In this document: positions 3,162 to 39,097 of the stretch, in pieces
Numbering within the stretch: position 1 is the stretch's first letter
Layout: the number at the start of each line of letters is the position of its first letter
Assembly: GCA_030613005.1 (NCBI GenBank)
Contig: JAUWMV010000004.1
Coordinates: 29,211-93,210 of the forward strand
DNA length: 64,000 bases
From: a bacterium
Lineage (GTDB): Bacteria > UBP14 > UBA6098 > B30-G16
Direction: 5' to 3'
Position numbers and translations under genes: made by a program
Notes under the pieces: generated by a model
The model's database searches: none
What the model was told of the DNA's origin: nothing
Seen by the model: the letters and a program-made list of their open reading frames with translations, nothing else

Positions 3162-3162
3162 C

Positions 3163-4500
3163 ATGGAGCTTATGCTATCAATATCAGGAGCCAGAGGAAT
3201 TGTAGGAGAATCATTAACACCAATTGAAATCCTGAGAATTGTTAGTGCTTTTTCGCAACGTTTACCTAAAGGCAAGATATTAATAGGTCGCGACCCACGA
3301 CCATCCGGAAAGGCGATAGAAAAACTTCTCGAGGGGTATCTTCGTTTATTAGGACGGAACGTTGTTTTGCTGGGAATACTTCCCACACCAACGATTGGAC
3401 TTTGCGTGAAACACTCTGGTGCAGCAGGTGGGATAGCGATAACCGCTTCACATAATCCTGAACAATGGAACGCACTTAAACTTTTCAATTCAGAAGGTAT
3501 GTTTTTACCGGTGGAATTCTGGAATTCTGTAGAATCAGGCAAATTTGAAACTCCTGAATATGCTATACACTCAAAAGTAGGTGAAACTTCGTCAAAAACG
3601 GATTGTATTCAGTTACACCTCGAGAGAATTTTCGAGTTACCCTATGTAGATGTTACAGCAATCAAGGATTCAAAATTTCTAGTGGCTTATGACGGTTGCG
3701 GTGGTGCAGGACCAGCAACAATTCTTCCAATGCTCTCAAAGCTGGAAGTTAAGACAGTAGCGATTGGAACTGCCATGGATGGGAATTTTATTCATGAACC
3801 TGAACCTACTCCCAGAAACCTTGAAATGCTTTCAGAGCTAGTTCGAACAACAGGAGCATGTCTTGGGTTAGCCACCGACCCCGATGCTGATCGACTCGCT
3901 TTAGTTGACGAAACTGGTGCTCCCATTAGTGAGGAATATACTTTAGCATTAGCAGCGTTACATATTTTCTCAGAAAAACGTAGTGATTGCGTTGTCAATT
4001 TTTCAACAAGCATGATGATTGATGATATCGCAAAGGAACATGGAGTAAAAGTTCATCGCACACGGGTTGGTGAGTATCACGTCAGCAAATTGATGCTCGA
4101 GAAAAACGCAATAATAGGTGGGGAAGGCAATGGTGGTGTCATCATTCCTGAAATGCATCCTGTAAGAGATGCAACCACAGCAGCAGCAATTATTCTCACT
4201 TTAATGGCTAAAACAGGGAAAAAAGTTTCCGAACTTGTTTCGATGCTTCCAAAAAGATTCATGTTTAAGAAAAGAATGCCTTTTAGTGGAAACTTTTATA
4301 ATCTAGAAAGGAGTATCTTAAAATATTTTTCGGATAGAAAAGTGCGTTATGATGATGGTGTATGGGTCGGTTACGATAGCGGATTCATACATATACGACC
4401 GTCAAACACAGAACCTATTATTCGTTTTATTGTTGAAGATTCCGATGAATTGAATGCAAAGGAGTTAATTAAAACAGCCTTTAGAAGCATATCTGGCTGA
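3163..4500 (+). CDS. phosphohexomutase family protein (phosphoglucosamine/phosphomannomutase-like)
   Basis: Active-site TASHNP motif in GIAITASHNPEQWNALKL, and an alpha-D-phosphohexomutase domain order. Start taken at the ATG at 3163, 6 nt after AGGAGG and 1 nt after the accA stop. Confidence 0.75.
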   Translation: MELMLSISGARGIVGESLTPIEILRIVSAFSQRLPKGKILIGRDPRPSGKAIEKLLEGYLRLLGRNVVLLGILPTPTIGLCVKHSGAAGGIAITASHNPEQWNALKLFNSEGMFLPVEFWNSVESGKFETPEYAIHSKVGETSSKTDCIQLHLERIFELPYVDVTAIKDSKFLVAYDGCGGAGPATILPMLSKLEVKTVAIGTAMDGNFIHEPEPTPRNLEMLSELVRTTGACLGLATDPDADRLALVDETGAPISEEYTLALAALHIFSEKRSDCVVNFSTSMMIDDIAKEHGVKVHRTRVGEYHVSKLMLEKNAIIGGEGNGGVIIPEMHPVRDATTAAAIILTLMAKTGKKVSELVSMLPKRFMFKKRMPFSGNFYNLERSILKYFSDRKVRYDDGVWVGYDSGFIHIRPSNTEPIIRFIVEDSDELNAKELIKTAFRSISG

Positions 4501-4764
4501 CTGGTAAGTACAATTTCGCTTTTCTCTCCTACTATTCTCTAAAACACATTACTTAATAATAGTCAGTGTATTTTAAGAATTCATTTAAAAAGGTAATATT
4601 TTGGGTGCCTATGCCAAACATAGTGCTTTAATATTTTTTCATAGTATTCAAAATTTTCTGTCCTTAACTCATATTTTATTGTATTTTTACAATTAATTTG
4701 TTATATGAGAAAATTGTTTTGATATTTAAACCGCACAGATACAATAGGCAATATTTTCGAAAAT

Positions 4765-10230: not shown

Positions 10231-13167
10231 TTGTTAAATTCAATATTTATAATTTCGCTTCTAATCGCAGGACAAACAGAAACTGGCAAATTCGAATCTG
10301 CCGATACAATCAATTTAGGTGTTTACGTTGTGCCATCGTCGGTGGAAATTTTGTGTAGAGAGGATATTATCCCTAAAAGCATCTATCAAGTTACAGTAGA
10401 AGGATTTATTACTTTTTTCTCCACAATTGAATGTGATTCATTGACAATTAATTACATTCCAGTTTCAAAACTCATTCCAAAAGTTAGGTCCGAACAGACA
10501 TTATTCGGAACTCAATCTTTTGCCCCAAGAGATCCAACCTTAATGGAATCTGAGGATGCTTACATAAGAACAAGTGGTTATGTAACTCGAGGTTTCAAAA
10601 TCAATGAAGCCAACGATGTAATATCAACTGGGGAACTAAGAATTGAAGCATACGGTCAGCTTCCTATGGGATTTGAAGTTAATGCGGTATTATCGGACGA
10701 AGACCTACCATTTCAACCCGAAGGAACATCACAAGAATTGACCGAATTGGATAAAATAATGATCGAGTTAACCTCACCTAGTTTTTCAGCATCTATGGGA
10801 GATATCGACATCGCAATTAGTGCTGGGGATTTCCTAAATTTTTCACGGAAAATAAAGGGGGCTTCAGCCAAAGCTAACCTTCCTTGGATAAATGGGCAGG
10901 TTTTTGGCTCGATTATTAGCGGTGAATTTACTAAATTTGCATTTTATGCTACCGAAGGGAACCAGGGGCCATATCCTCTACAGGGAAAAACTGGCGAACG
11001 AGATATTGTAATTGTTGCAGGTTCCGAGAATGTATGGCTTAACGGCGAGCAAATTAAACGAGGCACTGAAAACGAATATATTATCGATTACAATCTAGCT
11101 CAAGTAACCTTTAATCCCAACACTCCAGTAGGAGCTGGTGACAGAATTTATGTTGAATATCAATATATTGCCAATGTTTATCAAAGCTCCTTTTATGGAG
11201 GATCTGCCAATATCATTGGTATACAAGACATTACATTAGATGTGGGATTTATAACGCTAGCAGATAATGGAGAGGAACCTATTGGCGAAATAACCGATTC
11301 AATTCAAGCAATACTTGAATCCTCAGGAGATAACTTCCCAGATTCTTTAGTCTCACCACCAATGAAACAATGGTCTCTTGTTTCCGGATTAACAATAAAT
11401 AAGAAAAAAAATTCATTAACTGCAAGCCATTCTATGTCTGGAATAGATAAAAACACTTATTCGTCCTTAGATGATCATGACAATCTTGGGCAGGCTTTTT
11501 CTGCTGCCGGAACGTTAGGTATAACAAACATCGTTAGATTTTTCGCATCTACTCGATATATGGACAGCAAATTCAATTCTTTTCAACCGATTGAAACCGC
11601 TGAAGAAAAAAGAAACTGGGGAGTTTATAACAATGAAAATCAAGAAGATTTAATAACATCGGCAGGAATTAGAATAACTTTTGGAAAATTAATTTCCACA
11701 GTCAATTTAGGTTACAGGAAAACAGGAGATGAAACCTGCCAACGAGAACGACTTAGGTTATTGTTAGACGAGGACGGTTTTGATATTAATGCTGGAATAC
11801 AGAACATTCGTTTTGGAGATGAGCAACGATTAAATAGCGATTTAAAACTTTCTCGCGAAATTGGCGAAATAACGAAGCTTTCCTTTTCCGGGGATATGGA
11901 GTTATTCGAAGGCTCATCTGACTCACTTGTTTACAATTTTAAACCGGAATTAGGAATAAATGTTCTGGATGGCAATCTCGGTTTTTCTTTCCAAATCGAA
12001 GAAAAGCAAGCTCGTCCTGAAAAGAATTTTGAGCGTCTATATTCAATTCTCTCCCCTGGTGTGGGATTTTCGGGACGTTCCTTTTCAGCCAATTGGTATC
12101 GAAGAATGTATAGATCTTATGATACGCTTGCCGGCAGTGATTTAACAACCGACCTTTTCCAAGTTTCAGCATACACAAATATTTTGGGCACAAAAACGAG
12201 TTTTAATTACTCAGTAACCGGCAGTCAAAGCGAAATTATGGAGAAAAAATTCGAGGAGGTTAAAATCGGCACAGGAAATTATAGCTACGATGAAGAACTC
12301 GATGAATATGTTCCGGATCCAAATGGAGATTATATTCTAAAATATGAACCTACAGGAAGTTTTGATCAAGTACTTCGGAGCAATGGAAGACTTACAGTTG
12401 CTGCCGAGAATGAGAAAATTGCTCTCGGTTCAGCTTTTTCAATCACCTCATCTTTTGAAATTGAAAATAAAGATCGAAGCTTCTCTGGGATTTTACCTAT
12501 TCCATCAACGTTTGAGAGCGATTCACTTTGCTATGGCAATCTTTATACAACGATTCAACTCAATACACTCCGCAGAAGTAAGATCAATTTAAATAGTACT
12601 TACCAAAATATACGTATTACACGACGTAATCTCATATCGGGTGATGAAATATATAACGAAAATGAATTCAGGCTAAGTTTGGCAGGAGTAGTCTACCAAA
12701 GCATATTCTCCGAATTATCTGGAATCTATAACATAAAATCTTCAACACGTCCAGGTTTAGAGGATAAGCTTAATTCCCATAACTATTCAACAGAACTTGC
12801 ACTCAGCCGAAAATTCCTTCGATATATGCAAATTGGGAATAACATAATATTGACGGCATCTAAGGGTAAATCAGGTACAACGGATATCGATGCGTTTATA
12901 TTCAGGAATACTTTTGTCTTGCAGTGGCGCTACAAAAAATTTAGAACAAGGTTACGCTCCGAACAGATAAATGTGGATTCAAAGCAAGAAGCCTTACCTT
13001 ATGAAATTTCCGGAGGTTGGCCTAACGGTTTCAATTACAGTTTTTCCTCGAGTATCACATATAAATTCGGCTCAAATATCGATTTGACACTAAGTGGCAG
13101 AGGAACTAAAAAATCGGAAAAAGATTTAGATTATGACATCGAGCTTAGAGCCCGATTTCTATTCTAA
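10231..13167 (+). CDS. large outer-membrane beta-barrel-like protein (C-terminal Phe)
   Basis: 978 aa with a short N-terminal signal (MLNSIFIISLLIAGQ). Long stretches of alternating hydrophobic residues typical of beta strands. C-terminus ...RARFLF ends in an aromatic residue, as outer-membrane beta-barrels do. Confidence 0.5.
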   Translation: MLNSIFIISLLIAGQTETGKFESADTINLGVYVVPSSVEILCREDIIPKSIYQVTVEGFITFFSTIECDSLTINYIPVSKLIPKVRSEQTLFGTQSFAPRDPTLMESEDAYIRTSGYVTRGFKINEANDVISTGELRIEAYGQLPMGFEVNAVLSDEDLPFQPEGTSQELTELDKIMIELTSPSFSASMGDIDIAISAGDFLNFSRKIKGASAKANLPWINGQVFGSIISGEFTKFAFYATEGNQGPYPLQGKTGERDIVIVAGSENVWLNGEQIKRGTENEYIIDYNLAQVTFNPNTPVGAGDRIYVEYQYIANVYQSSFYGGSANIIGIQDITLDVGFITLADNGEEPIGEITDSIQAILESSGDNFPDSLVSPPMKQWSLVSGLTINKKKNSLTASHSMSGIDKNTYSSLDDHDNLGQAFSAAGTLGITNIVRFFASTRYMDSKFNSFQPIETAEEKRNWGVYNNENQEDLITSAGIRITFGKLISTVNLGYRKTGDETCQRERLRLLLDEDGFDINAGIQNIRFGDEQRLNSDLKLSREIGEITKLSFSGDMELFEGSSDSLVYNFKPELGINVLDGNLGFSFQIEEKQARPEKNFERLYSILSPGVGFSGRSFSANWYRRMYRSYDTLAGSDLTTDLFQVSAYTNILGTKTSFNYSVTGSQSEIMEKKFEEVKIGTGNYSYDEELDEYVPDPNGDYILKYEPTGSFDQVLRSNGRLTVAAENEKIALGSAFSITSSFEIENKDRSFSGILPIPSTFESDSLCYGNLYTTIQLNTLRRSKINLNSTYQNIRITRRNLISGDEIYNENEFRLSLAGVVYQSIFSELSGIYNIKSSTRPGLEDKLNSHNYSTELALSRKFLRYMQIGNNIILTASKGKSGTTDIDAFIFRNTFVLQWRYKKFRTRLRSEQINVDSKQEALPYEISGGWPNGFNYSFSSSITYKFGSNIDLTLSGRGTKKSEKDLDYDIELRARFLF

Positions 13168-15814: not shown

Positions 15815-17080
15815 TTAAGGACAAGTAGGCCAATATCCACCAGAACCTGCCATAAGAAGCAGAAGAACCTCACCAGGTCTAACGAACTCAGGAGGTGATG
15901 TTACATACCAGTCACCGAATAATTTCACAGCAAGAGCAGTAATAGTTGGTGGATAAGGATTCCATCTGTACAAAACCTCACCGTCAATTCCAGATTTACT
16001 ATCGACACTTTCAGCCAATTTATCAGCTCTAAGTGGATAATCACCATAAATATTCGCTAAAGTATTGTACTCCTGATAAGGAACCATGAAGAAAACGTAA
16101 CCAGCTGGATCACTAGATTTCTTTTCGAATTTATAACAAGTATCAACAGGAACAAAACCTCTTGGTTCATAACCAAGATCATCATTCGCATCGTAACCGA
16201 GAGTAAACAAATATTCATCGCCTGCTGTTAAAGAATCTAAAAGAGTTAATGTCATTATATCTCCAGGTCTAACATAAACTGTTGGCGCTGAAGGACTATA
16301 AATCCATACACCGAACAGTTTAAAACAAATAAGCTCCCAAGTTTGCGTTGAGGAATTAAATTTAGTTAAGCCTTCACAACCGGGTATCAAATCCGCAAAA
16401 ACATGCGCTGAATCACCATGTAGTTCCAACTCATGGCATCGAAGAGGTAGAGTAATATGATTTGTTGCACCACCAATAATAACTTGATCGTATTCACCAA
16501 TAGGATCACTTGGTTTTTCAGAGAGATTTCCGAACGTATCCATAGCAACAACAGTGTAGAAATAATTGACATCGGGGTCATTCACACCTCTGCTGCTATT
16601 ATATAGATTAGTATCCGCAAAAATATCAGTCGTTATATTTGGCCCAGACCAATTGTAATCACCCAAATCGGAGGAATCAGCTTCCTCTATTGGGTCTATC
16701 ATAATAGCTGAATCACCATCGCCGAACATATCTATATCATCCCAGTTGAAAAGAGCCCATGGAGCTCTATACACAAACCATGTTTGATTTCGATCTTCCG
16801 GTCCATCCCCATTTGCCTTGATCTCAACAGTTTCATCACCACTTTCAACAGAAACCGACTTAATATAGATTATTGGAGCCGGTGGTCCTGGGGGTTGTCG
16901 TAATGTTAAAAATATAAAAATATTAGCTGCAGTATCTACAAAAACTTCAGTGGGTTCTGTGGGAACACCTTCTCCTTTAGATGAAGTATCATTATCTTTA
17001 CCGGAACCTGAAACTCCAAAAGTAGCTCCGACAAGAGCTAATATTAATACAGCCATTGCCCACTTACGCATGTAAGTCAC
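15815..17080 (-). CDS. secreted hypothetical protein with an internally duplicated C-terminal module
   Basis: Signal peptide MTYMRKWAMAVLILALVGATFG. Two related segments, ...ELICFKLFGVWIYSPSAPTVYVRPGDIMTLTLL and ...ALAVKLFGDWYVTSPPEFVRPGEVLLLLMAG. Confidence 0.5.
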   Translation of the reverse strand: MTYMRKWAMAVLILALVGATFGVSGSGKDNDTSSKGEGVPTEPTEVFVDTAANIFIFLTLRQPPGPPAPIIYIKSVSVESGDETVEIKANGDGPEDRNQTWFVYRAPWALFNWDDIDMFGDGDSAIMIDPIEEADSSDLGDYNWSGPNITTDIFADTNLYNSSRGVNDPDVNYFYTVVAMDTFGNLSEKPSDPIGEYDQVIIGGATNHITLPLRCHELELHGDSAHVFADLIPGCEGLTKFNSSTQTWELICFKLFGVWIYSPSAPTVYVRPGDIMTLTLLDSLTAGDEYLFTLGYDANDDLGYEPRGFVPVDTCYKFEKKSSDPAGYVFFMVPYQEYNTLANIYGDYPLRADKLAESVDSKSGIDGEVLYRWNPYPPTITALAVKLFGDWYVTSPPEFVRPGEVLLLLMAGSGGYWPTCP

Positions 17081-21650: not shown

Positions 21651-21744
21651 TTTTTCTATCCTTTGATATCTTTAAACAGATGCAAATTTAATTTAATGTA
21701 ATATGCATGTCAATATATTCTATCGAACTATACGGAGGAAGATA

Positions 21745-22626
21745 ATGATGAAATATATAGTTTGTATCGGTTTGTTTTTAATAATGCTTGGAGTATCATT
21801 CGGGCAATATGAAATCTTCTCAAACTCCGGTGAAAAAATCGAAACACTTGAAGCCTTGGTCGATCGATTATCAAAGAATGATGTTGTATTCTTTGGCGAA
21901 ATTCATAACGATATAATTGCTCATGGTTTAGAATTTGAAATATTAAGTCGACTTTCTAGCAGATGGGAAAAAACCGCGCTTTTACTGGAAATGTTCGAGG
22001 CGGATGGTCAAAGATCTCTGAATTCTTTCTTAGAAGGTAAAATATCCGAGGATGAATTTAAACAATCTGTTTCGCTCTGGGGCAACTACAACACCGACTA
22101 CCGAGTTATGGTCGAGTTTGCAAAGTTAAAGAAAATACCTGTAATAGCTGGCAATATTCCGCGTCGATTAGCAAAACTTGTCAGTTCAGATGGAATTTCT
22201 GCGTGGGATAAACTTTCCAATACAGAAAAACAGTATCTTCCAAGAGAAACGTTTTTCAAAAATGATCGATATAGAGAGCTTTTTGAGATGACAATGAAAG
22301 ATAATCCCATGATGAAAAGAATGCCTGATGTATCTATGGATAACTTATATCATGCTCAATGTGTTAAGGATGAAAAGATGGCGGAGTCGATCGTAGATTT
22401 CCTGAAGAAAAATTCAGACTGTAAAGTATTCGTAGTAAATGGTTCCTTTCACAGTGATTATCATCTCGGCACAGTGCAAAAGCTTAAACTTCGAATGCCT
22501 GAATTAAAAATCGTTACGATATCCGCCATACCTGTGGACGATATTTCTGGAATAAATCCTAAAGAATACTCGGAAAAAGCCGATTTTATTATCTTCACTC
22601 AAAAAAATTCTTCAGAAAGCTATTAA
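21745..22626 (+). CDS. ChaN-like family protein (haem-binding lipoprotein family)
   Basis: ATG 6 nt after GGAGG. Signal peptide; VVFFGEIHNDIIAHGLEFEIL and LLEMFEADGQ motifs characteristic of the ChaN/DUF399 family. Confidence 0.55.
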   Translation: MMKYIVCIGLFLIMLGVSFGQYEIFSNSGEKIETLEALVDRLSKNDVVFFGEIHNDIIAHGLEFEILSRLSSRWEKTALLLEMFEADGQRSLNSFLEGKISEDEFKQSVSLWGNYNTDYRVMVEFAKLKKIPVIAGNIPRRLAKLVSSDGISAWDKLSNTEKQYLPRETFFKNDRYRELFEMTMKDNPMMKRMPDVSMDNLYHAQCVKDEKMAESIVDFLKKNSDCKVFVVNGSFHSDYHLGTVQKLKLRMPELKIVTISAIPVDDISGINPKEYSEKADFIIFTQKNSSESY

Positions 22627-22690: not shown

Positions 22691-23551
22691 ATGAATTATT
22701 CTAAAATAATACTTTCACTCATATTATTTGTAAGTTGTTCTTATGGACAATTCGATATTTTCGCGAGTTCCGGAGATAAAATTCCAGATATCGACTCACT
22801 AATTTGTATTGTATCCCAATACGATGTTATCTTTCTCGGTGTTGAAAATTTTGATTCAATAAGCAATGTCCTCGATTATGAAATTTTCGATGCTCTAACA
22901 GAGAAAAACAAGGATATTGCCTTGTCCCTCGAAATACTTGAAGCAGACAATCAAGGGATTGTTAATGATTTTTTAGTTGGAAAAATAAGTGGGCAGGAAT
23001 TACATGTCGCTTCTAATATTGATATAAATATCCTTCAGATTTTCTTACCACTAATCAAACTTGCCAAAAACAAAGGATTACCCGTCATAGCTGCTAATAT
23101 ACCTAAAAGATTTTGCAGGATAGTCTCGCACTTTGGAATAGAGGAGTTAGGTTCATTGTCTGAACAGGAACAAAAAATTCTCCCCCAACAAACATTTTTT
23201 TTTAACGATCAGTATAAAGAACTATTCAAAGAAAGACTCCAAGAACAAAAAACACAGTTAGAAAAACAGGATGAGAACTTTAATAATCTATACCAGTCAC
23301 ATTGTCTTGCAGATGAGAAAATGGCAGAATCGATTTCCAATTTCTTGCTTCAGAATCCAGGATTTAAAGTTTTTATGATAAATAATTCTTTTCACTCTGA
23401 TTACAGACTTGGGATCGTTCAGAAGCTTAATATCCGATCCCCTATGTTGCGAATTGTTACGATAAAAAATTTTCCAGTGCCAAAAATGGCAAAAATCGAT
23501 TATAATCAGTTGCTTGATAAATCGGATTTTCTTATTCTAACTTTCCAATAA
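22691..23551 (+). CDS. ChaN-like family protein (tandem paralog)
   Basis: Same architecture as 21745..22626 (FLGVENFDSISN, LEILEADNQG, HCLADEKMAESI) and clearly related, though divergent. Confidence 0.55.
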   Translation: MNYSKIILSLILFVSCSYGQFDIFASSGDKIPDIDSLICIVSQYDVIFLGVENFDSISNVLDYEIFDALTEKNKDIALSLEILEADNQGIVNDFLVGKISGQELHVASNIDINILQIFLPLIKLAKNKGLPVIAANIPKRFCRIVSHFGIEELGSLSEQEQKILPQQTFFFNDQYKELFKERLQEQKTQLEKQDENFNNLYQSHCLADEKMAESISNFLLQNPGFKVFMINNSFHSDYRLGIVQKLNIRSPMLRIVTIKNFPVPKMAKIDYNQLLDKSDFLILTFQ

Positions 23552-25995: not shown

Positions 25996-27312
25996 ATGAA
26001 TAAAACAATAATGGAAAAAGCACACGCAGGAATCGAACTTCCAGAATTTACCGAAGTCGCAAAATACGAAAGAGTTTCCATAGATAAAATAATGGAAGGT
26101 GTTGCTGCTGGAACAATTGTTATAACAAAAAACAATGTTCGACCCAGACCTATACGTTCAGTGGGGATAGGTTCAGGTCTCTTGGTAAAAGTAAACGCAA
26201 ATATCGGGACCTCTCAGGACAGTGCGGATATAAAAAATGAATTACAAAAGCTCGAGGCTTTGGTTCAAGCGAAGTCGGACGCAGTTATGGATTTATCTAC
26301 CGGTGGCGATCTCACCGCGATTCGAAAAGCGATAATCGCTAATAGCCCAATCCCTATCGGTACCGTACCGATCTATGAAATTGCTGTTAAACAACGCCTA
26401 ACGGGAACCCCAATGATAAAGCTCTCTGCAAACGATATTTTTAAAGTTATAGAGGAGCAAGCAAAGCAGGGAGTGGACTTTATGACTGTGCATGCGGGAT
26501 TAACAGCGAGAACTGTTGAGATGATCCTTCGTGGTAGTAGAACTATGAATGTTGTCAGCCGAGGTGGAGCATTTCTTTTTCAATGGATTAGATTCAATGA
26601 ATGTGAAAACCCATTATACGAAAACTTCGACAGATTGTTGGAGATTTGCAGAAAATATGAGATAACTCTTTCTCTTGGCGACGGAATGCGTCCGGGTGCT
26701 GTGGTGGATGCAACCGATCAACCGCAAATCGAGGAACTGCTTACGTTAGGTGAATTGGTAGATCGTGCGCGAGAAGCCGGTGTTCAAGCTATGGTCGAGG
26801 GACCGGGTCATGTCCCTATCGATCAAATAGAAACTAATATGAAAATTCAGAAACAAATTTGCAAGGGAGCACCATTTTATATTCTGGGACCAGTAGTAAC
26901 CGATATCGCACCGGGTTACGATCACATAACATCCGCCATCGGTGGAGCATGGGCAGCTTATTTCGGTGCAGATTTCCTATGTTATGTTACTCGAACAGAA
27001 CACCTGTCTTTGCCCAATATAGAAGCTGTACGTGAAGGCGTAATAATAACTCGGATTGCTGCACATGCCGCTGACATAGCAAAAGGACATCCTGGAGCGA
27101 TTAATTGGGATCTTCAAATGAGCAAAGCTCGATTCGATCTTAATTGGGAAAGACAGATTTCATTGGCAATCGATCCCAAACGCGCAAGCTTCATACGCGA
27201 CGCTCTTCCACCGTCGGATGAGGAAGTCTGCACGATGTGTGGCGAATTTTGTGCATTAAAAATGACCAAGGAAGCTCTGCCCAAAAAAACCAGCGAAAAA
27301 CAGGAAATTTAA
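25996..27312 (+). CDS. thiC: phosphomethylpyrimidine synthase
   Basis: 438 aa. GPVVTDIAPGYDHITSAIGGA and the C-terminal CX2CX4C cluster CTMCGEFCALKM. Confidence 0.9.
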   Translation: MNKTIMEKAHAGIELPEFTEVAKYERVSIDKIMEGVAAGTIVITKNNVRPRPIRSVGIGSGLLVKVNANIGTSQDSADIKNELQKLEALVQAKSDAVMDLSTGGDLTAIRKAIIANSPIPIGTVPIYEIAVKQRLTGTPMIKLSANDIFKVIEEQAKQGVDFMTVHAGLTARTVEMILRGSRTMNVVSRGGAFLFQWIRFNECENPLYENFDRLLEICRKYEITLSLGDGMRPGAVVDATDQPQIEELLTLGELVDRAREAGVQAMVEGPGHVPIDQIETNMKIQKQICKGAPFYILGPVVTDIAPGYDHITSAIGGAWAAYFGADFLCYVTRTEHLSLPNIEAVREGVIITRIAAHAADIAKGHPGAINWDLQMSKARFDLNWERQISLAIDPKRASFIRDALPPSDEEVCTMCGEFCALKMTKEALPKKTSEKQEI

Positions 27313-27357: not shown

Positions 27358-28290
27358 CTAAGGTTTAACAATTATAGTCTCACCATCGATAGGAGACGGG
27401 AAAATAATACAGTTTTCATATTTTCCTGTTTCAACGATTGTGTTGGAGAAAACAATACAATTTTCCAAATATATTTCTGGATACAATTTAGCCTTTGAAT
27501 CCACATAAACGAAACCCTTAAGGTACACTGAATCCGGAGTTTTTACATTACTTTCAATAAAAGTTAATTTACCTGCAAGAGGATGCTTAACTACTGAATT
27601 TACTAATATTTCTTGATGTAACTTGAGATAATTTTTTAAATCTCCAAAGTCTAACCAGAACTCATTCTCTTCATATACTCGGACTAAGCCCTTTTCAAAC
27701 CAAGGTTTGAGTGCATCTGTTAGCTCTAAAAAGCCTTTATTAGAAAACGAATCGAGAACATCCGTATTAAAAAAACCAACCCCGGAATAAGTTAATTTCT
27801 TTATCGACGAATTTTTAGATAAGAATTCGGAACCAAAACCTATAACTGTTCCTGCTTTAGTTATAACATTATTTGTGAAATCATTATCAATCGTTATTAG
27901 TGTTACTTTCGCATTCGAATCCTTATGAAATTCATAAGCTTTTAATAAATTAAAGCTTTCTATAATATCGCAATTATGAACAAGCACTGTAGTTTCTGGG
28001 AGGATTTTGCTATACAGATTTCCCAATCCACCAGCTGTGCCCAGAATTTTATTCTCTGTAATACATTTTATCTTAAATTTTGAGGCATAACTTTCGATCT
28101 GAGCATTGTGATAATGTGTGTTTACAGCAATTTGAGTTATACCTGATTCATATAGTCTTTTATAAAGAACTTTCAAAGCTGGTATGCCAACAATAGGTAG
28201 TAAAGCCTTAGGGCAAAAATTTGTAAGCGGTTTGAGCCTTGAACCAAATCCCGCTGCAAGTATAAATGCATGTTTAGGAAACTTTCTCAT
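27358..28290 (-). CDS. sugar-phosphate nucleotidyltransferase with C-terminal left-handed beta-helix
   Basis: FILAAGFGSRLKPLTNFCPKALLPIVG (NTP-transferase G-rich loop). The C-terminal hexapeptide-like region is VYVDSKAKLYPEIYLENCIVFSNTIVETG. The start ATG at 28290 overlaps the upstream stop (ATGA). Confidence 0.6.
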   Translation of the reverse strand: MRKFPKHAFILAAGFGSRLKPLTNFCPKALLPIVGIPALKVLYKRLYESGITQIAVNTHYHNAQIESYASKFKIKCITENKILGTAGGLGNLYSKILPETTVLVHNCDIIESFNLLKAYEFHKDSNAKVTLITIDNDFTNNVITKAGTVIGFGSEFLSKNSSIKKLTYSGVGFFNTDVLDSFSNKGFLELTDALKPWFEKGLVRVYEENEFWLDFGDLKNYLKLHQEILVNSVVKHPLAGKLTFIESNVKTPDSVYLKGFVYVDSKAKLYPEIYLENCIVFSNTIVETGKYENCIIFPSPIDGETIIVKP

Positions 28291-28961
28291 ATAGGATATA
28301 TAATACATGCCGGGACTAAAGACCAAATTGGAATATCGTGAAAATCTTTCAAATCTTTCGCTAACATTAAAAGGTCTAAATAAAAGAAAATTGGCCAAGC
28401 TCCCCTGCCGTTCCCAAAACGCCAAAACCTTTTCTGGGAATAATCTTTCGAAAGTTTGCGTCGTTCTATCATTGAATCGTTCCAGCTTTTTTTATCCCTA
28501 AAATATATCTGAGCGCTTTTCTGAGACCATGCATGAATATCTGTACCAGCATTCACACAGATACTTAAAATACGTTTTAAATTGCGTTTATTCGGTGGTT
28601 CTGTTTTGAAAATGAATTGACTGATTTTACTGAAATTCTCCGAAGCAAGTCTAGAGAGTAATATTATCGGACATGCAAAAGCCGAAGCAAACGCAATTAC
28701 TTCAATAGATTTAGTTTCGATCTCGGTCTTTTCTGATAGACTGCTTATTGTTTCATCAAATTTAGTGAAAGGATAATCTAAATAGCGAATTTTTCCCTGT
28801 TCTTCAAAAGATCCCCATAATGAAGGTGTAATTCCCAATATTCTTTGCTCAAACTGATTTGCTAACCATTCAAGATTTTTCAGTTCTGTTTCCTCACCTA
28901 CACCGTAAATGATAGCACCAATATTCTTTACGAGCGATATGTATTCTGGAGAAATTATCAT
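28287..28961 (-). CDS. hypothetical protein
   Basis: 224-aa ORF sharing 4-nt ATGA overlaps with both flanking genes. No recognisable motif. Confidence 0.45.
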   Translation of the reverse strand: MIISPEYISLVKNIGAIIYGVGEETELKNLEWLANQFEQRILGITPSLWGSFEEQGKIRYLDYPFTKFDETISSLSEKTEIETKSIEVIAFASAFACPIILLSRLASENFSKISQFIFKTEPPNKRNLKRILSICVNAGTDIHAWSQKSAQIYFRDKKSWNDSMIERRKLSKDYSQKRFWRFGNGRGAWPIFFYLDLLMLAKDLKDFHDIPIWSLVPACIIYPI

Positions 28962-30222: not shown

Positions 30223-31161
30223 ATGGACATATTTGAATATTCAAGGCTCTCAATTGAAGAAATTGCAAAAAGAATAGATAAAGCCAAACGCAATCTTGGA
30301 GCCGTTATTATTGCTCACAGCTATCAACGTATAGAAGTACAGCAGATTGCGGATATTGTTGGCGATTCTCTTGAACTTGCACGAGAGGTAGTAAATACCG
30401 ACGCACCTATAATTGTATTCTGTGGTGTAATGTTTATGGCTGAGACAGCCAAAATAATTAATCCCGACAAAGTTGTTTTAATTCCAGAGATTCAGGCAGG
30501 TTGTCCTTTAGCAGCTCATGCTACTGCTGAGGATCTTATAAGAATGAAAGGTAAATATCCTGGTTATAAAGTAGTAACATATATAAATTCTACTGCTGAA
30601 GTTAAATCTGTTTCAGATATTGCATGTACAAGTGCAAATTCTGTCAAGGTTGTAGAATCCTTCCCAAAAGAGCAGGGAATAATTTTCGTGCCAGATAAAA
30701 ATTTATGCGCATATACAAAGAGGATAACTGGTAGAGAAAACATTGTATGTTGGGATGGTCATTGCTACGTTCATGATAGAATTACTGCTCAAGAGATATT
30801 AAATGCAAGAAAAATGCATCCCGATGCAGTGATTATTGCACATCCGGAGGTTAACGCAGAAGTTCAGGAACTGTCGGATCTTATCGGTTCCACGAGCGTG
30901 ATGTATAGATATGTTCGAGATCACCCAAAACAAGCTGTGGTTCTTGTAACCGAATATGGTCTTATTCAACGTATTAACACTGAATTTCCGGGAACATCCG
31001 TGTATCCTATTCATGAGCATGCAATTTGCTCAAATATGAAATTAATAACACTTGAAAAAGTTCTTCGGACACTCGATGAACAAATTTACGAAATTAACAT
31101 ACCAAATGCAATTGCGAACCGAGCCAGAGTTGCAATAGATCGAATGTTAGCTATTAAGTGA
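30223..31161 (+). CDS. nadA: quinolinate synthase
   Basis: VFCGVMFMAETAKIINPDK, ACTSANS and the conserved Cys positions of NadA. 312 aa. Confidence 0.9.
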   Translation: MDIFEYSRLSIEEIAKRIDKAKRNLGAVIIAHSYQRIEVQQIADIVGDSLELAREVVNTDAPIIVFCGVMFMAETAKIINPDKVVLIPEIQAGCPLAAHATAEDLIRMKGKYPGYKVVTYINSTAEVKSVSDIACTSANSVKVVESFPKEQGIIFVPDKNLCAYTKRITGRENIVCWDGHCYVHDRITAQEILNARKMHPDAVIIAHPEVNAEVQELSDLIGSTSVMYRYVRDHPKQAVVLVTEYGLIQRINTEFPGTSVYPIHEHAICSNMKLITLEKVLRTLDEQIYEINIPNAIANRARVAIDRMLAIK

Positions 31162-31215
31162 TATTATTAATCGATTATTATATTTTTTTAATTATAAGTA
31201 ATTGGAGAAAAAAAG

Positions 31216-32526
31216 TTGAAAACTTACAAGGATGTTTCTTACTGTAAATATTGTGGTAGCAAACTCGAGAAACTGAACATTGAAGGACGAGAAAGAGATA
31301 TTTGCGCAAATCCAAATTGCAGTGCAATCTCATATAACAACCCAATTCCTGCAACTGCATTAATTGTACCTCACCCGCGTTTTGCAGAAAAGATACTACT
31401 CGTCAAACGAGCTTGTGAACCCGCAAAGGGGGAATATTGTCTTCCTGGAGGGTTTCAGGAAATCGATGAAACACCAGAACAGTGCGCAATCCGGGAACTT
31501 TGTGAGGAAACATGTCTTAAAGGAGAAGTAATTCTTCCTTTGGGACTAAAAATGCAATTTTCCCCACAATATTTTTGGGTGCTTTTAACCGGATATCAAA
31601 TGAAGATAACCTCAGATAAAATAAAACCTGGGGACGATGCCGAGGAAGCTGGTTTTTTCGATATTAATAATCTTCCTCCCATTGCATTCGAGGGTCACAC
31701 ATGGTTTTTGGAGCGTTATAAAGAGAAATGGGTTGAAACTAAGAAATCAACGATTAATGAAAAGAGTTCACTTCTTATTATGGACATGAAAGATCCTGCA
31801 AAGCGTTATCTTGTACCTATATCGCGCAAAAAGTTCTCCACAAAAGGAGGAACAATCGACCTGATGAGTCTTGTGGGTAGCGAATTTGGAAGAATTATCA
31901 AAACTCATCTTGGTGAAAAACTCTTAATCCTAAAACCAACTCTATACGATAACATAATGTTAGGTGTTAAAAGACAAACACAAATAATCTATCCAAAGGA
32001 TTCACCATACATAGCTCTATGGTTAGGTCTTAGGAATGGCTATAAAGTTTTCGAATGCGGTTCTGGTTCCGGAGCGATGACGATTGTTTTAGCTAATGCA
32101 GTCTCACCAAACGGGAAGGTTGTCTCCTACGAATCGGATGAACGCTTCTACAAATTAGCAAGAAAGAATATTGAAAAAAATGATCTTTCCAGTAGCGTCG
32201 ATTTTTATCTCAAAGACCTATCAGATGGAATAACTCATGGACCATTCGATGCTGGTTTCATCGACATAAAAGAACCCTGTGAACATCTGGAAATCATTTG
32301 GGGTGCATTAAAAGCATCTGCACCTATTGCGTTCGTTCTCCCAACAACAAATCAAATTTCCCAATTGCTTCAATCCCTGAAGGATTTTAATGGATTCACG
32401 GATATACAAGTTTGTGAATTGCTGTTACGATTCTATAAAACGGTGCCACAAAGACTGCGACCTAAAGATCGAATGGTTGCCCATACAGCTTATATGATAT
32501 TTGCACGGAAAATTTTGAAGGATTGA
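31216..32526 (+). CDS. fusion protein: N-terminal zinc-ribbon + Nudix hydrolase (NudC-like) + C-terminal TrmI/Gcd14-like tRNA (adenine-N1)-methyltransferase domain
   Basis: TTG start 8 nt after GGAG. CKYCGSKL...CANPNCS zinc ribbon. Nudix box GGFQEIDETPEQCAIRELCEETCL. C-terminal half has FECGSGSGAMTIVLANAVSPNGKVVSYESDERFYKLARKNIEKN (SAM-binding GxGxG plus the TrmI-type VVSYE/ARKN). Confidence 0.65.
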   Translation: MKTYKDVSYCKYCGSKLEKLNIEGRERDICANPNCSAISYNNPIPATALIVPHPRFAEKILLVKRACEPAKGEYCLPGGFQEIDETPEQCAIRELCEETCLKGEVILPLGLKMQFSPQYFWVLLTGYQMKITSDKIKPGDDAEEAGFFDINNLPPIAFEGHTWFLERYKEKWVETKKSTINEKSSLLIMDMKDPAKRYLVPISRKKFSTKGGTIDLMSLVGSEFGRIIKTHLGEKLLILKPTLYDNIMLGVKRQTQIIYPKDSPYIALWLGLRNGYKVFECGSGSGAMTIVLANAVSPNGKVVSYESDERFYKLARKNIEKNDLSSSVDFYLKDLSDGITHGPFDAGFIDIKEPCEHLEIIWGALKASAPIAFVLPTTNQISQLLQSLKDFNGFTDIQVCELLLRFYKTVPQRLRPKDRMVAHTAYMIFARKILKD

Positions 32527-32527
32527 T

Positions 32528-35437
32528 ATGCCCGGAATTACAGCACACTTTAACTTCGATCCTAAAACAATCAATCCGCAATGCATAACTATCGTACCCT
32601 ATAAATCAGATGAGCAAATAATTCTACAAAGGCTCGATGTTGATATCGCATCTGTAGGATGGAATATAATCACTATTAGAGAATTAATCGAGACTTTCAA
32701 AACCGAAATATTTTGGCCAATAGAGATTAGCGATATTCAATCTTTCGCAATTGCACACAGAATATTTTTAGAAAGCGATTTCCATAAAGAATTAGTCGAT
32801 CTACGAAAAAAGCCATCCTTTCCAAGAAAACTTATGGAATTTTTCCAGACTACTGATCAAGCTGGTATATTGGAGCATTTCGAAATTGATCGTTTATTAT
32901 GTTCAAGCAAACTCGGTCCGAGAACCAAAGAGGCATTAACCTTGTATAAAAAATTCCGAGAGGAATTAAGGAATAACGCCCTTGCCACCTATGATTATCT
33001 CTTCCATCTTGCCTTAAAAGCTGTAAAAAAAGGTCGTTTTCCACAATCGCTAAAATTTAAAGAAATAATCATTTTTTTTAACTTCATGGAATTCAACATT
33101 CCCCAACGAGAATTCGTAATGGAGCTTGGAAAAATTAAAAATGTGTCTCTTTGCTTTCCAATAGAATACTGCGATTATCCTGTTAGATGGCGAGAACCGA
33201 TTAACAACCTTTTGAATGAGTTTGGCATATATGTTAATGAAAACCGGATGAAATCACAAAAAGCTATTACTTTAGTGCTTAACGGTGAATATGAAAATCT
33301 AAAAGACAATATTCAATTTCTCCTTTTACCAGATCCCCAAAGAGAAGTTAGAATAGTTGCCAGATTAGCTAAATACTATACAATTAAAGATAAAATTGAT
33401 ACACAAGATATGTTAATCATAACTCCGGATACAGATGCATATAAATCCTTGTTATCCTTAGAATTAGGATTCGTAGGACTCGACTTTCCTGATCAAGCTT
33501 CTACCCATAATGAAGCAGATTTAGAAAATCTTTTTAGCAAACTTATGACAGCTGTAGCAAGCGATTGGCGTCGAGAAGAACTGATTCAATTATTCAAACA
33601 CCCAATTCTTCAAAAAGCATATCCCGAACTTGAAAGTAAATGGATAGAACAGTATACAGCTTTTAATAAGCTGATTGATATCAAGAGCTGGCAGGAAATA
33701 GAACTGGAAGATGAAAAAGCTATACAAATTCTCGAACTGATTGGAAAATTTGATTTCCTTAAAAACTTGATTCCAGCTAATAAGCTTGAATCGACAATGC
33801 AACACATCAGCAACATTTTGTCAATTCAAATTGGTATAGAATCGCTTCCGCAGTTAAAGGATGAGCTATCAGAGCAATGGTCACGAATTATTAATAACGC
33901 AAAAGAATTAGAAAAAGGTTATTGTAAATTAAAATTCACCGGTCTTGAGTTCCTGGCAATTCAACTTTCACTTCTAAAACGCAAGAAATTCAAGGCTATC
34001 TCAAGCAAAATAAGAATATTACCACCGCTTGAAGCAAGAGGTGTTAATGCCAAAATCATTTTTATTATCGGTTTTAATAGGAGCAATTATCCTCAAAGGC
34101 ACAACCCAAATCCTATTATAGACACAGATTATCGGGACATTTTTTCATTTATTTCCGACAAAGAAGGAATAAGTCGGATATCACTTATTCAATCTATGTG
34201 CCTTGCTGAAAAAGTTATTATTACTATACCTCAAACTAGCGGAGAGGATAATGATCTTGCCCTTTGTCATCCTATCGACGAGATAATGCGGTTCTGCGGC
34301 ATTTCGCTTGAAATGGCACAAAAGAAAGCAATAGAAATTTGGGACGAACTTGAAAATCTTGAAAGAAAAAAAGTATCTTCGACTCTCACACAAATACCGA
34401 ACGAGGACATTGTAAAATTGATTTCACCATATCAAATAGATCAACTTAAAGAAAATATTATTGCCAAAGGCTTGGGAATAGGAGAACTTGAAAAATATCA
34501 TATATGTCCATTATTATTTTTACTAAGCAAGAGTATAGGCAAACCAGAAACTGAAAAAATCACTTTAGAAACAAACTGGAGAATAATAGGAACTGCAATT
34601 CATGATGCATTAAAAGACTTTCTAAGTAAACGATTCATGAAAATCTTCAATGAGGAACCTTTTGGAAAAGGAATTCAATCTCAACGTAACAGATTACACA
34701 CAAGAGAATTAACACCATCTTTGTTGAAACAATTTATCAATAAATTTAAACTTAATAACCGTGAGAATTTCAATTGTTTTGCAGAGCAATTCTTTGGACA
34801 TTATGAAGAATTCGATGAATTAATTAGTGAATTAAGAAAATCTATTTTCTATAATTTTGAATTAATTTGGAAAACTGAGCCTTCTTTGTTGATTAATAAA
34901 GCAAGGTTCCTCTCGATGTTTACTGAAAAACAACTTAATGATATTCTTGAAAGTATTATTAACATTACAGGAGATGATGTTTGGTTGCCCATAGGATTCG
35001 AAGTGCCAATTCAAGAAAGGCGTGAAATCGATGGACATAAAATCCTAATAAAGGGTCGAATCGATAGAGTGGATTTGTCCTTTATAAATGATTTACCTTA
35101 TTTATGCATTATCGACTATAAAAGTTCTGATATTAATTCTGTATATGAATTCCAGCTTAACGCATATGGCACGATGCTATCGAGAGCAGGATTTGAAATT
35201 GATAATCTATCTTGTATATACAACCTTATTAGAGATGAGAAGGTTGGGCAAAAAGAATTTAAGTTTAATTATGAGTCGGCTTTTGATCCGCAAAACAAAC
35301 AAAAAAATATTGATGAAATACTATTCTCAATATGGGACTGCAAGTTCGATCCTTTGGAAAATAGGAATTGTAAAAGCTGTATTTACAAAAAACATTGCTC
35401 ACAGTCTAAATATGATAAATCGAAGCAGTTCGATTAA
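32528..35437 (+). CDS. AddB-like protein: degenerate helicase-like N-terminal region + C-terminal RecB/Cas4-type PD-(D/E)XK nuclease with Fe-S cysteines
   Basis: 969 aa. C-terminal motifs GRIDRVD (II), IIDYKSS (III), QLNAYGTML (QxxxY). One upstream Cys (HICP) plus CX2CX5C (CKSCIYKKHC), as in AddB/Cas4. No Walker A found in the N-terminal part. The start ATG is 1 nt after the upstream stop. Confidence 0.6.
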   Translation: MPGITAHFNFDPKTINPQCITIVPYKSDEQIILQRLDVDIASVGWNIITIRELIETFKTEIFWPIEISDIQSFAIAHRIFLESDFHKELVDLRKKPSFPRKLMEFFQTTDQAGILEHFEIDRLLCSSKLGPRTKEALTLYKKFREELRNNALATYDYLFHLALKAVKKGRFPQSLKFKEIIIFFNFMEFNIPQREFVMELGKIKNVSLCFPIEYCDYPVRWREPINNLLNEFGIYVNENRMKSQKAITLVLNGEYENLKDNIQFLLLPDPQREVRIVARLAKYYTIKDKIDTQDMLIITPDTDAYKSLLSLELGFVGLDFPDQASTHNEADLENLFSKLMTAVASDWRREELIQLFKHPILQKAYPELESKWIEQYTAFNKLIDIKSWQEIELEDEKAIQILELIGKFDFLKNLIPANKLESTMQHISNILSIQIGIESLPQLKDELSEQWSRIINNAKELEKGYCKLKFTGLEFLAIQLSLLKRKKFKAISSKIRILPPLEARGVNAKIIFIIGFNRSNYPQRHNPNPIIDTDYRDIFSFISDKEGISRISLIQSMCLAEKVIITIPQTSGEDNDLALCHPIDEIMRFCGISLEMAQKKAIEIWDELENLERKKVSSTLTQIPNEDIVKLISPYQIDQLKENIIAKGLGIGELEKYHICPLLFLLSKSIGKPETEKITLETNWRIIGTAIHDALKDFLSKRFMKIFNEEPFGKGIQSQRNRLHTRELTPSLLKQFINKFKLNNRENFNCFAEQFFGHYEEFDELISELRKSIFYNFELIWKTEPSLLINKARFLSMFTEKQLNDILESIINITGDDVWLPIGFEVPIQERREIDGHKILIKGRIDRVDLSFINDLPYLCIIDYKSSDINSVYEFQLNAYGTMLSRAGFEIDNLSCIYNLIRDEKVGQKEFKFNYESAFDPQNKQKNIDEILFSIWDCKFDPLENRNCKSCIYKKHCSQSKYDKSKQFD

Positions 35438-38140: not shown

Positions 38141-39097
38141 ATGGAATTTGAAATAATAAATGCAATTCGAAAACGCTATCCTCGATACATCGGGGATGAC
38201 TGTGCTGTATTAGATTGTGCAAATGAAAAACTGCTTCTAACAACGGATGAAGTTGTAGAATCGATACATTTTAACTTCAAATATTTTTCGTTAGAGGATA
38301 TAGGCTATAAAGCTGCCTCGTCCGCAACCTCCGATATAGCTGCTATGGGTGGAAAAGTCCATGGAATACTTGTATCTCTCTCAATTCCTGTGGACACTAA
38401 TAAAACTGAAATAATGCGTCTTTTTGATGGTATTGAACTTTTTTGTCAACCACCATCCATAGAGATCCTTGGAGGTAATATAACGAATAGTGAACAAGGT
38501 TTGCACATTGCTATAACAGCAATAGGTTCGGTAATAAAACCAATATTTCGAAGTGGAGCTCGTGAAGGTGATGAAATTTGGATTACAGGAGCATTGGGTG
38601 GATCACTTGCTGGACTATCAGTCCTGAAGAATCCATCTTTAGGCATCGAGCTAACTAAACTGGAATATGATTTAATAACTATACGTCACAGAAAGCCAAC
38701 CTCGAGGCTACTTGCAGGAGAAATGCTAGGTTCTCTCAGTATTCACTCCCTTATAGACCTTTCGGACGGTTTTCAGGCTGATCTTAATCACATATTGGAT
38801 GATTCAAAAGTCGGAGCAGAAATTAAGTTGGAAAAACTTCTCCTTTTCCCGGGAGTAGAAAAAATTTCCAATTCACTTAAAATTTCACCTTATATATTTG
38901 CTGCAACAAGCGGTGAGGAATACGAGCTTATTTTCACCACACAAGCCGGACAAGGTGAGGAAATTGCAAAAAAACTTCTAAATGAATTGGATATTCCTAC
39001 AACAATGGTTGGACATGTGACTGCCGATCAAATAAAAACAAGTCTCTTTGGTGAGTTAATAGATCCTAAAGAGTTAGCAGGATGGGAACACATTTAG
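38141..39097 (+). CDS. thiL: thiamine-monophosphate kinase
   Basis: AIR-synthase-related fold: IGDDCAVL, LTTDEVVESIHF, SDIAAMGG. 318 aa. Confidence 0.8.
   Translation: MEFEIINAIRKRYPRYIGDDCAVLDCANEKLLLTTDEVVESIHFNFKYFSLEDIGYKAASSATSDIAAMGGKVHGILVSLSIPVDTNKTEIMRLFDGIELFCQPPSIEILGGNITNSEQGLHIAITAIGSVIKPIFRSGAREGDEIWITGALGGSLAGLSVLKNPSLGIELTKLEYDLITIRHRKPTSRLLAGEMLGSLSIHSLIDLSDGFQADLNHILDDSKVGAEIKLEKLLLFPGVEKISNSLKISPYIFAATSGEEYELIFTTQAGQGEEIAKKLLNELDIPTTMVGHVTADQIKTSLFGELIDPKELAGWEHI

Follow-up and report, generated by a model that had tools for sequence, protein, structure and literature searches.

We report that two enzyme families, the zinc-ribbon Nudix hydrolases and the TrmI tRNA methyltransferases, are joined in one reading frame within a 64-kb stretch of bacterial DNA (contig JAUWMV010000004.1, positions 29,211 to 93,210; hereafter the window, meaning the whole 64,000 nucleotides analyzed). 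Both families are known; their combination in one protein is new and apparently undescribed as a domain architecture, and it is restricted to a single species-level cluster of an uncultivated lineage. The fused gene arose when the stop codon separating two neighboring genes was lost, without any insertion or deletion (indel), and it probably encodes a lineage-specific bifunctional protein whose two enzymes act independently, each keeping its ancestral chemistry.

An earlier note on this DNA, made from the letters alone, had described the frame as an unusual fusion of a NudC-like Nudix hydrolase to a TrmI-type methyltransferase, and the frame with its zinc ribbon, its Nudix box and every motif quoted there is present (coordinates in Table 1). 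The ribbon cysteines are spaced C10-x2-C13 and C30-x4-C35, the Nudix box reads G79-FQEID-E85-TPEQCAI-R93-E94-L-C-E97-E98-T-C-L, and the methyltransferase motifs GSGSGAMT and VVSYES...LARKN occupy residues 282-289 and 302-317. Searches with domain hidden Markov models (HMMs), which the note had proposed, place both Pfam NUDIX (residues 58-153, 53.7 bits, cut-off 21.1) and Pfam GCD14 (PF08704; residues 249-415, 83.9 bits, cut-off 26) above their cut-offs. Pfam Zn_ribbon_Nudix (PF14803) matches residues 9-40 at 20.4 bits, under its cut-off of 25.6, and the Pfam scan of the fusion gave no match to zf-NADH-PPase at E ≤ 0.01. An AlphaFold2 (AF2) model of the full-length protein, which rests on an alignment with seven TrmI rows and gives nothing on inter-domain geometry, has a poor TrmI half (mean predicted local distance difference test score, pLDDT, 65.6; predicted template modeling score, pTM, 0.46); the C-terminal helix of its Nudix half reaches about residue 179, and pLDDT falls at residues 178-180.

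Alleles, rarity and origin of the fusion

The two genes are separate in all related lineages, as would be expected if a fault of sequencing or assembly had joined them here; the earlier note had named such a sequencing error as one way in which its claim could fail. Yet six distinct full-length alleles, all of 436 residues, form a 90%-identity cluster assembled from NCBI, JGI, ENA and Logan data and trace back to five or more independent samples and assemblers. Fused alleles carry 43-57 substitutions and no indel (DNA 95.7-96.7% identical). The order nadA, fusion, PDDEXK gene is identical at the four loci fetched (L005, L090, L091 and L092; loci and proteins are cited by our L and P numbers), and their DNA differs from the window at 55-57 of the 1311 positions, mostly synonymously, again without indel. 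At the junction itself the alleles vary by substitutions only (V173I, E174D, S178L, N181K and S185T), which excludes one shared junction error; linker differences between alleles are all non-synonymous. The ratio of non-synonymous to synonymous change (dN/dS, Nei-Gojobori) lies between 0.04 and 0.15 for the Nudix portion and between 0.07 and 0.12 for the TrmI portion, and since it is low in each, both halves are maintained by purifying selection. An assembly artefact is effectively excluded, with a negligible chance left to it.

The survey that the earlier note had recommended bears out its view of the fusion as unusual. Among 5.8 billion proteins, a word-indexed search met both domains together only in the cluster of the window protein, and an exhaustive phmmer (HMMER) scan of 1.84 billion representatives at 50% identity returned a single match spanning residues 1-436, P0001, which represents that same cluster and is 96% identical to the window protein. 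The rarity rests on this exhaustive scan, a database search with the Nudix half alone having missed the fused P0001. Other long phmmer matches were tandem GCD14, HAD + GCD14, tandem Nudix and zinc-ribbon Nudix + ThiE proteins. Like the fusion described here, the zinc-ribbon Nudix + ThiE and HAD + TrmI proteins show both families joining neighboring housekeeping enzymes in a lineage-specific manner; the partners differ, and none pairs Nudix with TrmI. One of them, P0321 (502 residues, HAD hydrolase + TrmI), is another case of a lineage-specific N-terminal hydrolase extension. No publication listed by a literature search mentions Nudix together with TrmI.

The closest relatives of each half are stand-alone proteins: TrmI homologues of about 260 residues at 55-61% identity, and Nudix homologues of 166-182 residues at 52-60% identity. 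In four related lineages (L001/L002, L009, L093/L175 and L174) the two genes are separate, adjacent and co-directional. They overlap by ATGA in L001/L002, where the order is SIS_2, Nudix, trmI, PDDEXK, and in L093/L175, and by GTGA in L174. In L009 the order is nadA, Nudix, trmI, the last starting at the contig end; Nudix and trmI are separated by TGA-AAA-ATG, so that the Nudix stop, a 3-nt spacer and the trmI start share one reading frame. A conceptual read-through of this junction (...HRWFVEQYKKDIS*KMGSTIKPDSLLLIVD...) aligns without a gap with the window protein (...HTWFLERYKEKWVETKKSTINEKSSLLIMD...): the L009 TGA faces Glu174 of the fusion (GAA, 31735-31737) and the L009 trmI ATG faces Lys176 (AAG, 31741-31743). 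Because the alignment is gapless, substitutions suffice to explain the fusion, first abolishing the stop and later the internal start. In the relatives a zinc-ribbon Nudix gene of roughly 170-180 codons lies directly upstream of trmI and is translationally coupled to it; in the lineage of the window the stop codon and the trmI start became sense codons (E174 and K176), giving the 436-residue protein. The linker derives from the former Nudix tail, the stop codon, the 3-nt spacer and the TrmI start and N-terminus. We had considered Trp172 (TGG) as the former TGA stop, by analogy with the sequence GAG AAA TGA in L093, and dropped it when the L009 alignment put the stop at E174. An in-frame TAG at 3469-3471 of L093, in the conserved Nudix C-terminal helix (HR*FVD), reflects either a nonsense variant or an error in the sequencing of that contig; L175, of the same lineage, reads HRYFVD.

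Counting the fused one, the Nudix-trmI pair was found in five lineages despite different flanking genes: nadA and PDDEXK on either side, nadA upstream (L009), SIS_2 and PDDEXK, ADSL downstream in one, and, in another, a Na/Ca exchanger region plus a downstream GAPDH gene. Even close relatives, however, can have the genes apart. trmI is not near the Nudix gene in L006 (nadA, Nudix, ABC) or in L007, L008 and L010, which have the Nudix gene alone, and trmI stands without a Nudix gene in L003/L004 and L173. Among the matches listed, no locus of the wider Nudix family (32-50% identity, with Desulfobacterales, Zixibacteria and Marinimicrobia among others) had trmI within 3-4 kb. The genome and metagenome contig scans with the Nudix alignment are samples of this wider family that did not recover even the known fused contigs; among the matches listed, trmI adjoins Nudix in L093 only. 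Persistence of the pair in five lineages fits selection for co-expression, and it also fits inertia, with overlapping genes decaying from one ancestral nadA-Nudix-trmI-PDDEXK arrangement.

The two halves compared with known enzymes

Its sequence marks the C-terminal half as a bona fide TrmI. In phmmer, residues ~187-436 are matched end to end by solved TrmI proteins, N-terminal beta domain included: 1O54 of T. maritima (residues 28-271, E = 1.7e-58), 2YVL of Aquifex (7e-52), 3MB5 of P. abyssi (4e-42), 1I9G of M. tuberculosis (1.7e-29) and 2PWY of T. thermophilus (1.4e-25), with further matches to the TrmI structures 3LGA and 5C1I. Of these, 1O54, 1I9G and 2PWY are treated as TrmI in published work (PMC4125815). 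The same source lists the contacts of Aquifex TrmI with its cofactor AdoMet (S-adenosylmethionine, SAM) as F98, A104/L105, E120, D148, D165 and E168. The fusion has A287/M288 (in G282-S-G-S-G286-A-M) at the A104/L105 positions, E306 for the ribose-binding E120, D334 for D148, and D350 and E353 for D165 and E168 (motif IV, D350-I-K-E353-P-C355); F98 is replaced by Cys281, which is also Cys in close orthologues. The fusion thus shares with the five TrmI structures above the C-terminal 250 residues, motif I, the ribose-binding Glu and the equivalents of D334 and D350. It differs from them by a 186-residue N-terminal extension, seen in no other TrmI among the 1.84 billion representatives, and by a substitution in the window allele: codon 355 (32278-32280) encodes Cys here and Trp in the five other fused alleles and all homologues examined. 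The lost Trp, W170 in Aquifex, sits directly after the D-x-x-E-P of motif IV. Taken together, the GCD14 score and the E values from 1.7e-58 to 1.4e-25 uphold the TrmI-type assignment made in the earlier note, and because the half is a genuine TrmI by these measures, the outcome that the note had named as refuting its claim, a generic class I methyltransferase unrelated to TrmI, does not apply.

The N-terminal half belongs to a large family of stand-alone proteins of about 170 residues, in which four Cys never vary, the Nudix box is intact and the motifs DDAxE and P-IAF-x-H follow toward the C-terminus. Its homologues at 40-60% identity number in the hundreds, many of them with a PF14803 match. 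The fusion keeps all 20 residues that are invariant in the family, and 76 family members share its four Cys without exception. Residues 1-175 were modeled by AF2 with a pLDDT of 93.2, with the zinc-ribbon strands 16-22 and 25-30 above 90. The closest structure by both fold and sequence is 3CNG (Foldseek template modeling (TM) score 0.78, E = 3.8e-14, 30-31% identity; phmmer E = 2.4e-11 over residues 8-159), a zinc-ribbon Nudix protein of N. europaea that is uncharacterised (PMC5389931). Proteins of the 3CNG type (PF14803 + PF00293, often annotated 'ADP-ribose pyrophosphatase YjhB' or 'NUDIX hydrolase') have the same architecture of about 170 residues; they are stand-alone, whereas the window module is joined to TrmI.

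The description of this half as NudC type in the earlier note holds in part. In Foldseek, E. coli NudC aligns over ~175 columns, zinc ribbon included, at a query TM score (TMq) of 0.68-0.76, followed by mammalian NUDT12 and M. abscessus NudC (NudC/NUDT12, 0.71-0.76), with NrtR- and ADPRase-type Nudix proteins lower. hhalign relates the Nudix family profile to residues 92-236 of E. coli NudC (the sequence used is identical to 5IW4) with 98.8% probability. NudC C98, C101, C116 and C119 correspond to C10, C13, C30 and C35 of the fusion, and the catalytic E174, E177 and E178 to E94, E97 and E98. In the NudC-NAD structure, the adenine is stacked by Y124 and F160 and bound by E111, while Q192, W194 and S199 of the SQPWPFPxS motif bind the nicotinamide riboside, W194 being essential (PMC5034116). 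The adenine residues have equivalents in Y40 (invariant in the family), F80 and E23. SQPWPFPxS itself aligns to M113-Q-F-S-P-Q-Y-F-W121, with W194 replaced by S116 and S199 by W121, so that the nicotinamide pocket is not conserved; the consensus of the closest Nudix subfamily at this site is N-Q-P-S-P-Q-Y. The N-terminal domain of NudC (residues 1-96, swapped) is absent too, the fusion starting 7 residues before its zinc ribbon.

Profile scores agree with this split. The NCBIfam NudC model NF001299 gives 33.4 bits against a cut-off of 158; curated equivalog HMMs for ADP-ribose pyrophosphatases of the NadM-Nudix/NrtR group also stay under their thresholds, the best being NF003788 at 36.4 bits (cut-off 354) and NF050029 at 19.1 bits (cut-off 400), with matches that cover the Nudix-box region only. 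What the fusion shares with NudC and NUDT12 is the four-Cys motif directly before the Nudix fold, the catalytic Glu residues and the adenine-binding equivalents; what sets it apart is the missing N-terminal domain and SQPWPFPxS, an identity of only ~22%, and a sub-threshold PF14803 match rather than one to zf-NADH-PPase. Because the homology holds while the nicotinamide motif, the N-terminal domain and the HMM threshold fail, the module is best classed as a NudC relative by descent and fold that lies outside the NADH-pyrophosphatase subfamily. Conservation of the adenine-binding residues suggests that its substrate is an adenosine-diphosphate-X compound.

Another clue to the substrate is nadA, which does lie directly upstream of the fusion, as the earlier note had stated. 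The adjacency of nadA and the orthologous Nudix gene recurs in three lineages (the window clade, L009 and L006) and is absent in L001, L007, L093 and L174; distant Nudix genes adjoin nadA in three gammaproteobacterial loci (L044, L077 and L078). The NAD-related substrate that the note deduced from this neighbor, for instance NAD(H) or ADP-ribose, thus draws modest support from the recurrence and loses some to the exceptions, leaving nadA a weak hint.

Independent enzymes or a coupled pair

We favor two enzymes that work independently on one chain. The C-terminal half would be a SAM-dependent tRNA (adenine58-N1) methyltransferase, probably assembled into the tetramer typical of TrmI. For the N-terminal half we predict an active, metal-dependent pyrophosphohydrolase that would split adenosine-diphosphate-X; NAD(H) or ADP-ribose would be its likeliest substrates because of the NudC-like fold, the conserved adenine-stacking residues and the recurrent nadA neighbor, and by analogy with NudC it probably dimerizes via the zinc-ribbon region. 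Fusion most likely does no more than lock in the 1:1 co-expression that came with translational coupling, and a new RNA-directed activity is not needed to explain it. Several observations weigh against this explanation. Both enzyme assignments rest on homology, the structure closest to the Nudix half is the uncharacterised 3CNG, and the nicotinamide pocket of NudC is not conserved. With W355C this strain could have a less active methyltransferase, unless the substitution is a rare sequencing error. ThiE is the fusion partner of Nudix family members that are 44-47% identical to the Nudix half of the fusion (P0354, 377 residues; P0137, 245 residues, partial), a hint that at least part of the zinc-ribbon Nudix family may serve thiamin metabolism. 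Directly upstream and on the same strand, 26 of 57 wider-family Nudix loci have a gene for class II fructose-bisphosphate aldolase, mostly in Desulfobacterales (among L013-L034, L096-L107 and L176; in L176, for example, 2704-3999 and 4001-4501), and MazG genes also neighbor distant members, MazG and CvpA often downstream, and HisF is a further neighbor. These wider-family neighbors (aldolase, MazG, HisF and CvpA) give no consistent substrate clue. Finally, a Nudix-trmI pair kept in five lineages while its flanks change fits functional coupling and argues against complete independence.

Such coupling would make the zinc-ribbon Nudix and TrmI an undescribed functional unit, kept together and finally fused for co-localisation, in which the Nudix domain acts on the adenine-nucleotide moiety of TrmI substrates or products: NAD- or ADP-ribose-type caps, ADP-ribosyl adducts on tRNA-like RNAs, or 1-methyladenosine (m1A) nucleotides. 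We hold this to be possible, though improbable. A narrower version was advanced in the earlier note, which proposed an activity directed at NAD-capped or ADP-ribosylated RNA; here the Nudix domain would act on RNA carrying NAD- or ADP-ribose-type 5' caps, or on ADP-ribosylated RNA, and TrmI would deliver it to tRNA-like substrates, making a coupled RNA-repair enzyme or one for decapping and methylation. The homology of the Nudix half in fold and profile to the NAD-RNA decapping enzymes NudC and NUDT12, the conserved adenine-stacking residues, the pair retained in five lineages and fused in one, and the recurrent nadA all agree with it. SQPWPFPxS with its essential W194 and the NudC N-terminal domain are missing, however, and the literature search brought up no link between Nudix and TrmI. 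Mature tRNA 5' ends are monophosphates made by RNase P, which leaves no obvious tRNA substrate for a cap-directed activity. Beyond the closest subclade (Nudix at least 52% identical), trmI was nearby in 0 of 80 reference-genome loci and at no other metagenome locus, among the matches listed. Trivial loss of a stop codon accounts for the fusion more simply, and the RNA-directed activity, for which we find no specific support, is unlikely.

Two further functions can be imagined for the Nudix half. As a sanitiser co-inherited with the m1A writer, it would hydrolyse m1ATP or m1ADP released by the turnover of m1A-containing tRNA, and there is precedent in MTH1, a Nudix enzyme that clears N6-methyl-dATP from the nucleotide pool (PMC7152754). 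The conserved pairing, fused once, and the conservation of adenine-stacking residues but not of the nicotinamide pocket would suit this role. It is nevertheless pure conjecture, as no sequence feature speaks for a methylated adenine. Some close Nudix orthologues have no trmI beside them (L006 and L007), some close TrmI orthologues no Nudix gene (L003 and L173), and the nadA linkage is left unexplained, all of which makes sanitising a long shot. Still less probable is a non-enzymatic, NrtR-like domain that binds ADP-ribose and tunes TrmI to an NAD-derived metabolite. NrtR Nudix domains do figure among the matches (3GZ8 in Foldseek, TMq 0.65; 3GZ5/3GZ8 and 2FML by sequence; NF050029), and nadA, a typical neighbor among NrtR-regulated genes, adjoins the fusion. 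Against a sensor, the Nudix-box residues E82, E94, E97 and E98 are intact and invariant across the family, and the protein of the relatives is a stand-alone, enzyme-like gene product of 170 residues with no effector domain; with the catalytic residues in place, we consider this role very improbable.

If the two activities are independent, the likelier case, the locus offers a textbook birth of a bifunctional gene, through stop-codon loss in a tightly spaced, in-frame pair, with its unfused intermediates surviving in sister lineages; two well-known families thereby gain a domain architecture. Should the pairing prove functional, a NudC-related Nudix hydrolase would for the first time be connected with an enzyme of tRNA modification, and the substrate of the 3CNG-type zinc-ribbon Nudix proteins, a large and uncharacterised family, would become easier to approach.

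Genomic surroundings of the fusion

Table 1. Parts of the fused gene and its two same-strand neighbors (positions in the window; aa, residues of the fusion protein unless a length is given)
Feature	Position	Strand	Details
nadA, quinolinate synthase	30223..31161	+	Pfam NadA 372.8 bits, NCBIfam NF006878 383.6 bits; 54 nt before the fusion
GGAG ribosome-binding site	31204..31207	+	8 nt before TTG, read from the sequence; kept in L005
Fused gene, zinc-ribbon Nudix + TrmI	31216..32526	+	436 aa, TTG start
Four-Cys zinc ribbon	31237..31335	+	aa 8-40; C10, C13, C30, C35
Nudix fold	31336..31725	+	aa 41-170; Pfam NUDIX, AF2 model, Foldseek
Nudix box	31450-31518	+	aa 79-101; predicted catalytic E94, E97, E98
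Linker	31726..31773	+	aa 171-186, ~16 residues
TrmI N-terminal beta domain	31774..31950	+	aa ~187-245; aligned to 1O54 residues 28 to ~90 and to stand-alone TrmI N-termini
TrmI catalytic Rossmann domain	31951..32523	+	aa ~246-436; Pfam GCD14, phmmer against TrmI structures
AddB-like PD-(D/E)XK protein	32528..35437	+	969 aa; Pfam PDDEXK_1 73.1 bits; begins 1 nt after the fusion stop

The AddB-like gene, whose product bears a C-terminal Cys cluster, probably belongs to the same operon as the fusion. A PDDEXK gene also follows trmI in L001 (959 residues) and in all the fused loci. In the window, no gene for an AddA/UvrD-type helicase comes after it, the next gene being a TM7S3_TM198 membrane protein on the opposite strand. 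A terminator scan found no terminator-like site on the + strand between 29900 and 37300, and the promoter and terminator scans were at background level. Near the fusion lie thiC (25996-27312), which is directly upstream of trmI in L003/L004, and an AIRS-domain gene (38141-39097) that is a candidate thiL, a guess from the domain alone.

The window is otherwise ordinary bacterial chromosome, encoding ClpB/C, ThrRS, ThiC, SecY and PurA. Judged by ThrRS, whose closest matches are 65-68% identical, the named groups nearest to this lineage are Cloacimonadota, WOR-3 and Zixibacteria, at ~57-58% identity. No tRNA genes were found within the 64 kb, and three large open reading frames gave no Pfam match at E ≤ 1e-5 (10231-13167 on the + strand, 978 residues; 61044-62753 and 15815-17080 on the - strand, 569 and 421 residues). 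An NTP_transferase frame at 27358-28425 (- strand, 355 residues, TTG start) overlaps the upstream 224-residue frame at 28287-28961 (- strand) by 139 nt; as gene calls in L090 and L091 give 310 residues, its true start is probably further downstream. Two tandem ChaN/Cofac_haem_bdg paralogues (haem-binding, uptake) occupy 21703-22626 and 22691-23551 on the + strand, and a large, Alu-domain-containing bacterial signal recognition particle (SRP) RNA lies at 1767-2035 on the - strand (119.7 bits).

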